Origin: Eledone cirrhosa | Taxonomy: Eukaryota | DNA length: 64,000 nucleotides | Direction: 5' to 3' | Assembly (NCBI GenBank): GCA_964016885.1 | Contig: OZ024742.1 | Span: 264,120,001 to 264,184,000 of the forward strand | Part shown: piece by piece, positions 22,006 through 53,197 of the stretch | Position numbering within the stretch: the first letter of the stretch is position 1 | Layout: each line of letters starts with the position of its first letter | Notes under the pieces: generated by a model | What the model saw: only the letters and a program-made list of their open reading frames with translations | What the model was told of the DNA's origin: nothing | Database searches by the model: none | Made by a program: the position numbers and the translations under genes

Positions 22006-23289
22006 AATTATATCGTAAGGCTCAGAAAATGTTTTCCTTGAGCTATTTTAATTGTAAGGAACTACTACTCTGAGTTTCTTACTCAATATATACTTTTGAT
22101 ATATATATATATATATATATATGTATGTGTGTATGTGTGTGTGTGTGTGTGTGTGCGTGTGTATAGAGGAAGGCGCACACATACACAACATACACACATG
22201 CACACATACACATATGCATATATATGCGTTCCTCTATACATACGCACAGACGCGCGCAGACACACACGCGCACCCCCACCCCCACATATATATATATATA
22301 CATACGTATATATGCGTATGTATGTACGTGTGCATGTGTGTATGTTGTGAGTGTGTGTGTGTATGTGTGTATGTGTGCACGCGCGCGTGTGTTTTTGTGT
22401 GTGTGTATAAAGGAAAAGTTTCTTTATGAGAGATTTTCATCTCTTAGTTTATTAGCCTATGAAGTTAATTATTTTGCCCCACATACACATGTGTGTGTAA
22501 GTATATACATATATAATGTTTGAGACATTAAACGTCACGGGGTTCATTCCTGTATCGCTAACTTCATAAAACACTCTTTGATAAACGATTTTTTAAAACA
22601 ATATCGACGGCTAACTTCTAGAAAAGAAGAGAAGAGTTGATAATAGTGACTCACTATTGTTTAACAGATGAATACTAAACAATTGCTTAGGAGTACTTTT
22701 AATCGTGTTAAAAGATATTTCATCACGATAAATCGTTACAAATTCTTTGATTCCGTTATTTTTTTTATTCCAAATAACCGTTATTCAATATTGTGCATTT
22801 CTTTGTTATACATTTCAACCATCCCGTTTCATACAAAGCCGGCTAGTCGGTCTTCTCCATTTCAGTACTTTCTTTCACTTCTTTGTTTTCATCCACAACT
22901 AATCAAACCAAACACTCAAATTACTTTAATATATAGAATAATTTTACCATATTGTCCGTTACGTTTTCTGGAAAATATTGAGAAGAAACTGCATGAACAT
23001 TGAAATTCTAAACAGTTTCAGCTTTATTCAATATATATATATATATACATATATATATATATATATATATATATATATATATATATATATATATATATAT
23101 ATATATATATATATATATATATATATATATATATGTATATGTATATATATATATATATATATATATATATATATATATATATATATATATATATATATAT
23201 ATGTAAGCAAAGAGATATTTAATTTGCTGGTAATTCAACAAATTTATTTATAACATATTCGAAGCATTCGACAAATTTCCTGGAGTATT

Positions 23290-23650
23290 ATATCAATGAT
23301 ATTAATAAATGGAAACTATATTTATAAAACCATATTTATTTTATTTTATATATTTCAAGGGTACCAAAAAAAACTTTGGTACACCCTCATCAGATAAAAT
23401 ACAAAATTTGTTTTATAAATAGTGACATACCTGATAAATCAGACCTTATCGGTTCAGGTTCCGTTTGGATATCCAAACGGAACCTGAACAGATAAGGTCG
23501 GGTTTCTCGGGTATGTCACTATTTATAAAACAAATTTTGTATTTTATCTGATGAGGGTGTACCAAAGTTTTTTTGGTACCCTTGAAATATATATAATAAA
23601 ATAAATATGGTTTCATAAATATAGTTTCCATTTATTAATATCATTGATAT
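23290..23650. repeat. ~360 bp spacerless palindrome carrying an HHR on each arm
   Basis: Centre ccgtttggat|atccaaacgg at 23470/23471; arms match with few differences; set in (TA)n. Confidence 0.95.
23540..23603 (+). ncRNA. Type I HHR with palindromic stem III
   Basis: UAUUUUAU-CUGAUGA-GGGU..ACCAAA..UUUGGUACCC-UU-GAAA-UAUAUAU-A|AUAAAAUA. The mirror copy (23336-23402, minus) is mutated at the cleavage site. Confidence 0.75.
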
Positions 23651-23744
23651 ATATATATATATATATATATATATATATATATATATATATATATATATAT
23701 ATATATATATATATATATATATATATATATATATATATATATAT

Positions 23745-23863
23745 AAAAATTCAGCGAGAATCGCATTTCGGCGGGTAGAAAAAGCGAAACGTAACGCAAT
23801 TTCCGAGTCATGCTGGCAAGCTCTCCATGGCCTAAAAAAGACCAGAGCAATAAACATAGGTTA
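23745..23863 (-). mobile_element. Fragment of the 26974-27612 element family
   Basis: Reverse complement aligns to about 26995-27105 (gcgagaatcgcatttcgg...accagagc.ataaacata). Confidence 0.7.
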
Positions 23864-24200
23864 TATATATATACATATATATATATATATATATATATAT
23901 ATAGAGAGAGAGAGAGAGAGAGAGATTATATTATATTATTTATATGTATATATATAGCATGGAAAACGAAAAATAAGTGATGCATCGGAACTTAATTTAT
24001 TGTGTGTTACAATTGTTTCCCACCGAAAAGCTCGAGGTGCGATCTGTGTGTCCGAGGAACCTAACTCTGGATTCACAGGTTCCTCGGACACGTCTATTGC
24101 TCAACCGGCATGCCAGCTATGGAAGCATCTTAGCTACTATTAGACATATATATATATATATATATATATATATATATATATATATATATATATATATATA

Positions 24201-49951: not shown

Positions 49952-50368
49952 CATATAAGTAGGCAGGAACAAAGTCTCAAGGTTTCATCATATATAAACT
50001 CTATTTATATATGACAATTGTTTCGATATCTAACAGCTCAAGGTTCGATCATGATGACCGGGGCCCAACTTTGCATCGACAGCTGATCAGATTATACAGG
50101 TTTATATGTATAAATATATTCCTGGTTTTGGTTGTTGCTGTCTTCTATACGAAGTTCACACGTTGTCTATGTCTTCTCTTCACTGCCCCTTTAAAATCTC
50201 ATAATGTATTGCCACTCTAAAACACTGAATTCATTTCGTGTATCATTGAGTATTGATCGAGCATACTCAAATAAATTGATTCTTGTTGCAATCGTGCAAA
50301 TACGACATCGATGTACTGGTGATAATATGGCTAGTTCAGTTGCCTCCGTATCATTATTTCTTTGATTT

Positions 50369-50555
50369 GGCGGTGGATTGGCAGTTAGGGTAGACAGTCG
50401 GACACCATGCTTTGACGCATAAAGTTACGGCCCTTGCCATTCTGAGTTCAAATCCCGTCGAGATTAACTTTGCCTTTCATGCTTACGGGGTCGATAAAAT
50501 AAAGTACCAGTAATACACTGGGTGATTGCTGGCCTTGTGCCAGAAGTAGAAACAA
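50369..50555 (+). mobile_element. tRNA-derived SINE with TSD
   Basis: Flanked by tatttctttgatt on both sides. Confidence 0.85.
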
Positions 50556-51028
50556 ATATTTCTTTGATTATGTTCTTATTTTAGCTGCGACCAGTAAGGG
50601 TTACACAACAAAGACTATTATGTTCATACAATCTTATGATGTCGCCGATTCTTTTTTTTTTTTGCGTGATGGTCTGATGCTGTATTATGCAACAATAAAG
50701 GAAGTTGTTAAAATCCGGCTTTCTCATGTTTTCATTGATATATATATATATTTACAAAATGCGATTTTTGTAAATGCATTGAGTGAGTAGATAGCGACAG
50801 GGTTAGACGGAGTATAAACAGATAGCGGGTTAAACCTAAGCGCTCCCTCACCCTCTCTCTCTATCACACTCTCTCTTTCTCTCTCTCTCTCTCGCTATAT
50901 ATATATATATATATATATATATATATATATATATATATATATAGTAATAATAATAAATTTGAAGACTAAAATCCAAAGAGGGCTCGGTAAGGATAAATAT
51001 ATATCAAATATATAAGAACCGTAGAGCA

Positions 51029-53197
51029 AATATTTATTAAAATAACAGATTAAAGTTTAAGCAAAGAATCGCTGCTTTCACCCTTAACGGGATCTTCTGA
51101 AACTAACAAAGTCAATCTGTAAATGCAGAAGTAGATATTTCAAAAAACGTTGCAACCGGAGGAAGACAAGAAGCCGATACTTTGGTTCGTGGTAACGTTC
51201 GCTGGCGAAGAACGGGAAAAAACGAATAATACGTCATTAATAGGAGCGGTGAAAAACAATATGGTATAAAAGAGGTCGTAGACCAATGTTCTCTTTGGTG
51301 GTGCATAGAGACGTTCTCTGGCAATGAACGAAAAAAACGAAGATAATGCGTCATATGAGGAGCGTAGAGAACAATAGCACGCAACGACAAAACCACGTAA
51401 ATGTATAGCAGAAGTCGTAGACTAAAATTCTAACTAGGAGACCGAATGAATCTCCGCTACAGAGTTAAGAACAAAGTAAATAAATACAATACAGAAGTAA
51501 TAGAAATAAATAAATACATACACGCAAACAAATACGTACATACACAAGCATACGCACAAACTTACCATAGGTATACAAAACCACGCACATATAAATATGT
51601 GTGTGTGTGTATGCGTGTATACAAATAAATAAATAATTATATAAACGTATATAAATAAATAAATACTTATATAACAAGCTCACACACATACCTACATGTA
51701 AATACACGAATGTTCGGAGACGTAAGTCAACCAAAACATGAAGTACACAATACACACACTCTACATACGTACGAACCTGCATACTCACACAGACGCAAAA
51801 CTCCCATATACACATAGCCACACCATATGTACCAGAATATATAAAATTATACGCCATAACAATCAAATATACGTACGAGAAGGTATACAGGTATACGTAC
51901 CTTCACAAAACATACGGGTAATATATACTTACCTATGCAAATAAGTAAAGTATAAACAAAACATTTACTTAGCTCCCACACCCAATATAAGTTACACTGG
52001 GAGATCCTAGCTTGGGCTAGATCGTATAACGGAAATAAAAGACCATATGACCTCTGCGCCGCTGAGGCCCTGGAAATACTCTACGCCACAGACCACTTCT
52101 TAAACAAAAAATCTGAGGCAATTTCGGCTTGTAAACATAAATTGCACAAAACTTTCCTGTATTACAGCCCCACGTTATACCCTAACGGATAGTACGATCT
52201 ATACGTGGATATTTTACATCTTGATGTGGGAGCTAAGTATATGTTTTGTTTATACCTTTACTTATTTGCATAGGTAAGTATATATTACCCGTATGTTTTG
52301 TGAAGGTACGTATACCTTCTCGTACGTATATTTGATTGTTATGGCGTATAATTTTATATATTCTGGTACACATGGTGTGGCTATGTGTATATGAGAGTTT
52401 TGCGTCTGTGTGAGTATGCAGGTTCGTACGTATGTAGGGTGTGTGTGTATTGTGCACTTCATATTTTGGTTGACTTACGTCTCCGAACATTCGTGTATTT
52501 ACATGTAGGTATGTGTGTGAGCTTGTTATATAAGTATTTATTTATTTATATACGTTTATATAATTATTTATTTATTTGTATACACGCATACACACACACA
52601 CATATTTATATGTGCGTGGTTTTGTATACCTATGGTAAGTTTGTGCGTATGCTTGTGTATGTACGTATTTGTTTGCGTGTATGTATTTATTTATTTCTAT
52701 TACTTCTGTATTGTATTTATTTACTTTGTTCTTAACTCTGTAGCGGAGATTCATTCGGTCTCCTAGTTAGAATTTTAGTCTACGACTTCTGCTATACCAT
52801 TTACGTGGTTTTGTCTTTGCGTGCTATTGTTCTCCACGCTCCTCATATGACGTATTATCTTCGTTTTTTTCGTTCATTGCCAGAGAACGTCTCTATGCAC
52901 CACCAAAGAGAACATTGGTCTACGAACTCTTTTATACAATAAACGTGGTTCTGTCTTTGCACGTAATTGTTTTTCACCGCTCCTATTAATGACGTATTAT
53001 ATTCGTTTTTTCCCGTTCTTCGCCAGCGAACGTTTCTACGAACCAAAGTATCGTCTTCCTGTCTTCCTCCGGTTGCAACGTTTTTTGAAATATCCAGTTC
53101 TGCGTTCACAGATTAACTTTGTTAGTTTCAGAAGATCCCGTTAAGGGTGAAAGCAGCGATTCTTTGCTTAAACTTTAATCTGTTATTTTAATAAATA
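51029..53197. mobile_element. 2.2 kb PLE inverted repeat with a GIY-YIG C-terminus in the spacer
   Basis: Arms 51029-51980 and 52225-53197. The spacer (+) reads YKLHWEILAWARSY..YDLCAAEALEIL..FLNKKSEAISACKHK*. Confidence 0.9.
53124..53174 (+). ncRNA. HHR-like motif with CAGAAGA core (mirror 51054-51104, minus)
   Basis: AGUUU-CAGAAGA-U-CCC-GUUAA-GGG-U-GAAA-GCA..UGC-UU|AAACU. Confidence 0.7.

Follow-up and report, generated by a model that had tools for sequence, protein, structure and literature searches.

Duplicated hairpins downstream of the paired flush and tailed ends of PLE-type palindromes in (TA)n tracts of Eledone cirrhosa

The window analysed was a stretch of 64,000 nucleotides from Eledone cirrhosa (contig OZ024742.1, positions 264,120,001 to 264,184,000). 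Using self-BLAST and display of the sequence, six inverted repeats (P1–P6) were recovered, each flanked by pure (TA)n, in agreement with the initial annotation, and the one-sided tails were found where it had placed them. F denotes the flush site and T the tail-end site.

The P1 insertion (23203–23650), from an older Hydra-clade family, comprises a palindrome at 23290–23650 (arms 95.6% identical), with the tailed arm on the minus strand (tail 23203–23289) and the flush arm on the plus strand. Its type I hammerhead, from core to cleavage site, lies at 23548–23595 (+) and is mirrored at 23347–23393 (−); hairpin 1, within the tail at 23265–23286 (−), is mutated in this copy and intact in the family reference. 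P2 (24201–24439) has a palindrome at 24201–24350 (97.3%), a minus-strand flush arm, a plus-strand tailed arm (tail 24351–24439), the 3' half of a hammerhead only, and hairpin 1 in the tail at 24356–24380 (+). The P3 insertion (27674–28210; palindrome 27674–28074, 99.8%; tail 28077–28210) is a stub derived from an autonomous element of 6.9 kb whose ORF spans 807 aa, and both of its arms stop at the hammerhead's 5' edge. This hammerhead has a long stem II (27879–28012, +; mirror 27736–27869, −), and hairpin 1 in the tail has a long inner arm (28081–28161, +).

P4 (28293–32812) is composed of a minus-strand flush arm and a plus-strand tailed arm (28293–30276 and 30736–32710, 98.8%; tail 32713–32812), with hammerheads at 32628–32659 (+) and 28344–28375 (−) and hairpin 1 in the tail at 32719–32740 (+). 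The C-terminal end of a PLE ORF, with the CxxC..E..N..CxH endonuclease end, was found at 30507–30698 (−). P5 (47662–48359) derives from a 483-nt non-coding, retrozyme-like tandem unit. Its arms (47781–47999 and 48138–48356, 99%) are tailed on the minus strand (tail 47662–47776) and flush on the plus strand, with hairpin 1 in the tail at 47735–47770 (−) and the hammerhead at 48211–48284 (+; mirror 47853–47926, −). P6 (50944–53194) has the same orientation, with arms at 51031–51980 and 52225–53197 (94.0%), a tail at 50944–51028 containing hairpin 1 (50982–51027, −), the C-terminal end of a PLE ORF at 51971–52171 (+), and a hammerhead-like motif with a non-canonical core at 53129–53161 (+; mirror 51067–51099, −). 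Central loops of 0–4 nt had been attributed to four palindromes; only P1–P3 have them. The centre of P4 is a local 54-bp fold next to a one-sided spacer of ~460 bp, and spacers of ~140 bp and ~245 bp separate the arms of P5 and P6.

Outward-pointing hammerheads had been assigned to all arms. In P1, P3, P4 and P5, each arm has a canonical type I core that faces outward, and the 3' half was confirmed for P2, but the assignment did not hold for P6. Its core read CAGAAGA in 60 of 64 matches and CTGA in none (fetched loci, overlapping loci included), and no canonical core was found in its pLTR; the pLTRs of P1, the P2 family, P3, P4 and P5 do have a canonical hammerhead. P4 was the only palindrome scored by Rfam Hammerhead_1, and its 31.7 bits fell short of the cut-off of 34.

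The six repeats had been described as unrelated in sequence. At the DNA level this was correct, with shared matches of just 16–18 nt; however, four families encode homologous proteins. As the proteins of P1, P3, P4 and P6 are 38–53% identical, these families are related, and they encode PLE proteins, as the proposed PLE origin had implied. The P3 family has a 6.9-kb tandem unit, and about 120 of the 150 matches listed contained open frames of 824–847 aa at 99–100% identity (counted by eye). ORFs were also recovered for the P4, P6 and P1 families; none was found for the P2 family. A model of the 807-aa protein (pLDDT 83.5) gave TERT as all of its top nine Foldseek matches, while Pfam and PDB sequence searches with the PLE protein gave no match. 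At the motif level, a C-terminal GIY-YIG endonuclease without CCHH was recognised (VY..YIG, R, E, N, with no cysteine pair in the core); among the Foldseek matches listed there was no fold match to this domain. Protein P0001 exhibits RWR, DKT, CNCRNKANC, CRLC and CNH, and the P4 protein shows this pattern too. A Naiad PLE was ruled out, the endonuclease being C-terminal rather than N-terminal, the motif DKT rather than DKA, and hammerheads being present. In each search for five families, 40 of 40 scored genome-wide candidates matched. The genome-wide P2 search, which skips very common words, gave no return; P2 copies were present in fetched loci. All six palindromes thus belong to repeat families, which speaks against chance. 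No relatives were found in the viral contigs searched.

Based on these features, P1, P3, P4 and P6 almost certainly belong to the Hydra clade of PLEs, the named Hydra elements having been compared by eye from consensus sequences. According to the available text of Craig et al. 2021 (PMC8557442), the clade shares RWK/RWR, DKT, CxCx5C, and CxxC and CxH around E and N, together with a canonical hammerhead, (TA)n targets, an inverted 5'-truncated copy and a tail at one end. Published work thus already covers the inverted copy, the tail on one side, the hammerhead and the targeting of (TA)n, and the hairpin pair described below is the new part. The reference units here have long 3' regions of simple repeats and measure 3.2, 4.3, 4.8 and 6.9 kb, compared to generally <3 kb in that account, where short units are typical rather than diagnostic; tails here are 85–136 nt compared to 30–40 nt. 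Neither a hairpin pair nor a count of F and T pairing was found in its available text. By eye, the published consensus of Hydra-1_Ajap has both hairpins ahead of the start codon, and the tails of Hydra-2_Ajap and Hydra-2_Amil contain hairpin 1.

In the element RNA the order is hammerhead, F, hairpin 1, T, hairpin 2, start codon. Copies terminate at F or at T, and the tail corresponds to the distance between them. An F end was paired with a T end in 91 of 95 two-armed insertions (p 8e-23 versus even choice); symmetric insertions numbered 4/95, or 6/98 when three rows dropped by hand were put back. On contig C1, an outward T partner lay within 15 kb for 19 of the 27 F ends listed (exact pattern), and true F+F was seen once among 100 F ends listed and T+T not at all among 100 T ends listed. 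These counts support the earlier suggestion of two cDNAs on opposite strands yielding one long and one short end. Exact P3 ends, at 1,972 for F and 5,939 for T, depart from a 1:1 ratio; 20 unpaired T ends were fetched, eight having a variant F partner and 12 having none within 9 kb. Single-armed copies are common. (TA)n adjoined 177 of the 190 ends of two-armed insertions (filled sites), and the (TA)n-targeted pathway in many families that had been proposed is supported. Tracts of pure TA had a median length of 24 at F and of 23 at T (n=74 for either end, p 0.72), giving no sign, at these filled sites, of TA addition at one end.

A bulged hairpin (RYUC...UN-GARY) sits 5–8 nt downstream of both F and T. 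It was found behind 6/6 F sites and 4/5 T sites, the fifth T having a variant by eye. Among further tailed families it was present in 13 of 32, against 0.7 expected, and absent from 19. Hydra-type relatives from other organisms had two hairpins in 20/30 cases, one in 8/30 and none in 2/30, compared to 0.08 in shuffles, and 10 of the 17 repeat-copy ends listed from other organisms fell 0–4 nt ahead of a hairpin. The inner pair was Watson–Crick in 55/58 and the next pair in 38/58, neither being matched in 20000 shuffles; these counts came from sequence-only anchoring that required no pairing, with kinship left uncorrected. The inner pair is C-G in 28/31 downstream copies and U-A in 14/27 upstream copies. 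The outer four pairs are almost invariant, and could for that reason be a sequence signal acting at the level of protein or DNA. Folding programs found the hairpin in most contexts, with P1 F, P2 F and locus L321 folding otherwise, and Rfam did not match it in the 8 loci scanned of 76 related loci. Both ends precede hairpins, and two copies of the hairpin recur in relatives with covarying pairs, so the tail corresponds to the hairpin spacing. Hairpin 1 is copied into the tail. No terminal end includes a copy of hairpin 2, which would leave tandem units as the only competent ones. F and T are both A/T-rich, with 1–5 bases able to pair with a TA primer. From their position and conservation, the hairpins likely serve as a dock for the reverse transcriptase.

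The arms span tens of bases to 13 kb. The flush arm reached deeper in 52 of 90 insertions, the tailed arm in 25, and the two were equal in 13; the claim that the deeper-reaching arm lacks the tail therefore holds as a tendency only. In 13/90 the T arm stays inside the tail (no more than 3 nt past F) and hence does not overlap the F arm. The centre junction varied among the 20 P3 copies read, including copies of identical length. Of 64 junctions, 18 could be exactly resolved and 46 could not; microhomology of at least 2 nt was present in 13 of the 18, where 19% was expected. Total arm lengths did not differ between tailed and flush arms (Wilcoxon p 0.80), and blocking of the tailed arm by a flush complex was rejected on this basis. 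For P3, 27 inner ends lay within 450 nt, and 13 of them clustered at the 5' boundary of hammerhead stem I, with a query that favours such arms; as a check on transcription start at the P3 centre, none of 15 ORF-bearing arms ending in range stopped at this boundary.

It is fairly probable that Hydra-clade PLEs and their non-coding passengers enter (TA)n through two cDNAs primed on opposite strands, each ahead of a hairpin. The protein, probably as a pair, would bind both hairpins of one multimeric or circular RNA, and the GIY-YIG domain would nick both strands of the self-complementary (TA)n. Each 3' OH would pair with 1–5 A/U bases at F or T and be extended. The two cDNAs would terminate independently of each other or at a common barrier; their ends would then join through short stretches of complementarity, with each end acting as primer for the second strand of the other; failure of one priming would leave a single-armed copy. 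The flush and tailed ends had also been suggested to be two RNA termini. Internal start sites fit better, because the RNA runs past F and T in tandem units.

A cutting role for the hairpins, with an intermediate in the element's DNA resolved by the endonuclease at F or T, or an RNA cut to two 3' termini and then primed in the ordinary way, is unlikely. The present data fix positions, not chemistry, and A/T-rich F and T sites would suit it. The available text of PMC8557442 puts the tail down to endonuclease-mediated resolution, and that of PMC11167929 mentions that endonuclease recognition in Penelope had required the tail and describes RNA-seq reads ending at the start sites. However, hairpin 2 is missing from the inserted DNA at the T end, so it must act on RNA or an intermediate, and the motif is on the sense strand (48 matches versus 8 on the reverse). 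Furthermore, a longer RNA 3' end left the main start site in place in vitro (PMC11167929, available text).

It is rather improbable that a single cDNA produces both arms, the second being copied from the first by snap-back or antisense self-priming, as was proposed for head-to-head Penelope palindromes (PMC3846280). Equal inner ends with tiny loops in 13/90 insertions are what fold-back would yield, and count against the two-cDNA mechanism. In P5, sister arms shared private variants and in 6/6 cases resembled one another more than they did any further insertion, an observation that counts for the two-cDNA mechanism as well, and arm lengths within an insertion correlate (rho 0.31, p 0.003). Against this, in the 52/90 insertions with a deeper flush arm, each arm has sequence that its partner lacks (in the tailed arm, the tail), which rules out copying in either direction, and in 13 of those 52 the arms do not overlap. 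Tailed arms confined to the tail (13/90) cannot be copies of the flush arm, and the earlier suggestion of snap-back fails as a general route. A fixed stop of the second arm ahead of a hairpin is likewise unexplained by fold-back. Two cDNAs are preferred, because junctions differ per copy and some arms lack overlap.

Very little weight was given to fold-back or MITE-like DNA elements moving as whole units. A 539-bp P3 palindrome with its tail did recur at 99–100% identity in 40/40 scored loci, but identical ends occur on full-length RT-encoding units and arm lengths are far from constant; transposition of the whole palindrome was rejected as the centre junctions vary between copies. Perfect palindromes beside microsatellites are a known artefact class, but long-read or assembly fold-back at the TA tracts is extremely improbable, as the arms differ by up to 6%, the ends are fixed, the tails are unique and one-sided, and Illumina reads from two other samples pass from the T end into (TA)n (550 and 471 reads). 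Further reads in these samples switch strand at the P3 centre (3 and 6 reads) or from tail to hammerhead, confirming the palindromes at the family level rather than for the six window loci individually.

In vitro work on Poseidon_Ac (Frangieh et al. 2024, PMC11167929) favours the two-cDNA mechanism. According to its available text, the protein nicks and extends both target strands, starting at two internal sites that set the tail. It is predicted to form a dimer and can do without hammerhead cleavage, but it depends on RNA downstream of those sites. Poseidon_Ac belongs to another clade and its start sites are within the ORF, whereas here they are upstream of the start codon; neither a duplicated downstream hairpin nor a pairing rule was found in the available account. 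In the same assay the start site was identical on top and bottom strands, which counts against the proposed mechanism.

By its sequence, P5 is a retrozyme-like non-coding passenger, and its unit gave no match to the PLE protein. The 483-nt unit is tandem in many loci and carries a type I hammerhead, as do the non-coding tandem units of animal non-LTR retrozymes (PMC7229834; bioRxiv 10.64898/2026.07.22.740005; available text of both). P5, known here from DNA alone, differs from these in having Hydra-type hairpins and F/T ends, and it is through these that it is tied mechanistically to a PLE enzyme. We give about even chances to the wider proposal that twin priming is programmed: two similar but distinguishable hairpins on a single RNA would load two RTs, one for each nicked strand, the palindrome with its tail would be the normal product, and RNAs with the hairpin pair, retrozymes included, would be mobilised in trans.

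In L1 twin priming, two primers on opposite target strands likewise give outward arms and microhomology joints; L1 uses a variable second site, its arms have no overlap and only a minority of events take this form. In contrast, both sites here are fixed, the arms usually overlap and this is the usual outcome. In two other systems, the template-boundary element of telomerase RNA and hepadnavirus epsilon, the point where reverse transcription starts or stops is determined by an RNA stem a fixed distance away. Here the stem is 3' of the start and present in two copies, and the likeness is one of analogy only. Neither a hairpin pair nor twin priming was described for PLEs in the literature searched, a search that most subscription papers fell outside.

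The available text of PMC8557442 calls the way in which PLEs form the tail and the inverted repeats an open question, the earlier proposals being self-priming (PMC3846280) and endonuclease resolution (PMC8557442). A covarying RNA element that is defined by its sequence and stands at a constant distance from either end, a near-strict pairing rule and a family with more than 100 intact ORFs make this question testable with few mutants. The hairpin pair would be the first cis signal tying animal retrozymes to a specific enzyme, would offer an RNA-docking comparison for telomerase's closest relatives, and would give a simple annotation rule for PLE ends.

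Six palindromes, P1 (23203-23650), P2 (24201-24439), P3 (27674-28210), P4 (28293-32812), P5 (47662-48359) and P6 (50944-53194), were located by self-comparison and sequence display, all with the TA flanks and one-sided tails claimed in the initial annotation. The outward-pointing hammerheads reported there were present in both arms of P1, P3, P4 and P5 and as a 3' half only in P2; the P6 core proved non-canonical family-wide (CAGAAGA in 60 of 64 matches). Loops of 0-4 nt had been assigned to four elements; tiny loops were seen in three elements, while P4, P5 and P6 have one-sided spacers, those of P4 and P6 coding for the terminal part of the endonuclease of a Penelope-like element (PLE). 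The abundant P6 family (window 53129-53161, loci L131-L160) had a non-canonical core in every match read, so it is probably mobile without self-cleavage.

A single-arm query with P3 retrieved 6.9-kb tandem units carrying an 807-aa ORF, together with outward pairs spaced 0 to ~11 kb. Among the 150 relatives listed, ~120 had intact frames at 99-100% identity, so the family is young. Roughly four and a half units make up one single-armed P3 array (L021-L024, L051, L052), which fits either a multimeric or circular template or subsequent duplication. The ORFs of P1, P4 and P6 are homologous to that of P3 (38-53% identity), their motifs agree with the Hydra clade definition in section 11 of PMC8557442, and the nearest match to the predicted fold of the PLE protein was telomerase RT (structure model, fold comparison). 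P5 is a non-coding tandem unit of 483 nt, and an ORF was looked for in the P2 family and not found. Since PMC8557442 already reports an inverted truncated copy, a tail at one end, a hammerhead and a (TA)n bias, the architecture is known, and what the window adds is new members of an established clade.

At 24452-25964 lies a seventh insertion of Hydra type, whose flush end (24452) is on the minus strand; it includes an ORF fragment from the endonuclease end (25217-25810) and, at 25818-25964, a short stretch of ORF in inverted orientation that continues into non-TA sequence. Solo flush arms were found at 47496-47603 (P2-like complete hammerhead, terminating at TA) and 20793-20916 (P6 arm fragment), and hairpin-bearing tails of other families at 18283, 19427 (minus), 49061 (minus) and 53404. 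The segment 48954-49151 resembles a small flush-plus-tail insertion. The window also holds Helitron-like PIF1 helicase fragments (10218-11958), two other RT fragments (33918-34460 and 43195-43974) and a tRNA-Asp gene (48586-48659, minus strand).

Each family has two fixed ends, a flush end (F) and a tail end (T), the tail being the distance between them. Among 95 two-armed insertions, 91 were F+T, three F+F and one T+T. Before counting, 19 P3 loci selected with a full-palindrome query were set aside, as were the copies in the window itself and identical duplicates, and a further 11 rows were dropped manually (five as duplicates, three for miscalled inner ends, one for low coverage, one as compound and one as uncertain); putting three re-readable rows back gave 92 of 98. 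Four extra P4 pairs, each across two loci and outside this count, were also F+T. By exact end patterns, an outward T lay within 15 kb for 19 of 27 F ends in the first 80.8 Mb of one contig; T+T pairs numbered 0 per 100 T ends listed, and true F+F pairs 1 per 100 F ends listed. The totals, 5,939 T against 1,972 F, speak against a simple picture, however. Among 20 unpaired T ends, a variant F served as partner for eight, and 12 lacked any partner within 9 kb; drift between subfamilies and single-armed copies therefore each play a part. The near-strict pairing of F with T appears to be undescribed in the literature searched.

The RNA beyond each end was read from tandem junctions. A hairpin lies 5-8 bases behind both F (hairpin 1, copied into the tail) and T (hairpin 2): RYUC, followed by an inner helix or loop, a bulge of two bases of which the first is U, and GARY. 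This descriptor matched all six F sites and four of five T sites, the fifth (P5) being a variant. Among 32 additional tailed families identified de novo in the fetched loci, 13 had it (0.7 expected). Of 76 loci of relatives from a metagenome scan, 48 were looked at, and a true N-terminus with at least 140 nt upstream was available in 30; 20 of these carried two hairpins, eight one and two none, compared with 0.08 carrying two in shuffled sets. The hammerhead comes first, then hairpin 1, hairpin 2 and the start codon; in 24 loci the two hairpins were 55-83 nt apart. Ten among 17 listed repeat-copy ends in the metagenome loci sit 0-4 nt ahead of a hairpin, some then entering (TA)n. With anchoring by sequence only and kinship uncorrected, 55 of 58 distinct instances had a Watson-Crick pair inside the bulge (C-G 40, U-A 15) and 38 of 58 had one at the next position inward, a register obtained with a two-base bulge only.

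By eye, among the published Hydra consensus sequences consulted, Hydra-1_Ajap carries both hairpins, Hydra-2_Ajap and Hydra-2_Amil carry hairpin 1, and Hydra-1_Crog carries a variant; no hairpin was seen in the other two. Rfam gave no match in the 8 of 76 related loci scanned, and the words 'hairpin' and 'bulge' are absent from the main text of PMC8557442; the duplicated hairpin appears undescribed in the literature searched. P2 hairpin 1 (24356-24380) is nearly identical, loop included, to hairpin 2 of a distant relative (L304:440-465). In the P3 5' leader (L051:8000-8146), hairpin 2 by eye surrounds ~100 nt that begin with GT and finish with AG and might be an intron; leader introns are known in other PLEs. 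Tailed TA-flanked palindrome families without the hairpin, their tails mostly 39-67 nt, were also seen (L205:5676-6097, L207:4477-5266, L219:6047-6447, L244:1359-1610, L119:1780-2136) and may belong to different PLE clades that use different signals.

F and T sites each have 1-5 A/T bases able to pair with a TA primer. For another clade, PMC11167929 describes nicking and extension of both target strands, internal initiation at two tail-defining sites, and a requirement for downstream RNA but not for hammerhead cleavage; the degenerate core of the abundant P6 family fits the last point. We propose that each hairpin would dock one RT, that the two RTs would take opposite target strands and that the cDNA ends would then join one another. 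The Poseidon template RNA in the same source has, by eye, the word pair GGCCA..GAAAG repeated before two AC-rich stretches ~40 nt apart, possibly a duplicated signal in that clade.

The main rival to docking holds that the hairpins mark places where the RNA or an intermediate is cleaved. Self-priming, as put forward in PMC3846280, may be the source of some equal-ended copies only. The arms point to two cDNAs, and snap-back of one cDNA, offered initially beside a two-cDNA origin, is ruled out as the general route: where each arm holds sequence missing from the other, neither can be a fold-back copy. Centre junctions vary between copies; in 90 insertions the flush arm reached further inward in 39 and the tailed arm in 25, the tailed arm ended within the tail in 13, and 13 were ties. 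Total lengths of the two arms were alike, with weak correlation. Several junctions fall in natural self-complementary stretches, such as the two strands of P3 hammerhead stem II in locus L031, and microhomology was enriched among exactly resolvable junctions (18 of 64). In non-coding P5, with its diverse copies, arms of the same insertion were each other's closest in 6 of 6; old P1 and P6 arms showed no homogenisation, which is evidence against gene conversion. This favours one RNA copied twice and does not prove it, as fold-back predicts the same sign of arm likeness. One P3-family arm (locus L269) begins at the hammerhead cleavage site, the one case among 15 ORF-bearing arms ending within range, and the inner ends of P5 gather at stem III, with five of them between -81 and -67.

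At the family level the palindromes are not fold-back artefacts: in raw Illumina reads from two other samples the T end passes into (TA)n, and the same reads include strand-switch joints both at the centre of P3 and from tail to hammerhead. A hairpin present twice and an almost strict F+T pairing make the origin of the tail and of the inversion testable.
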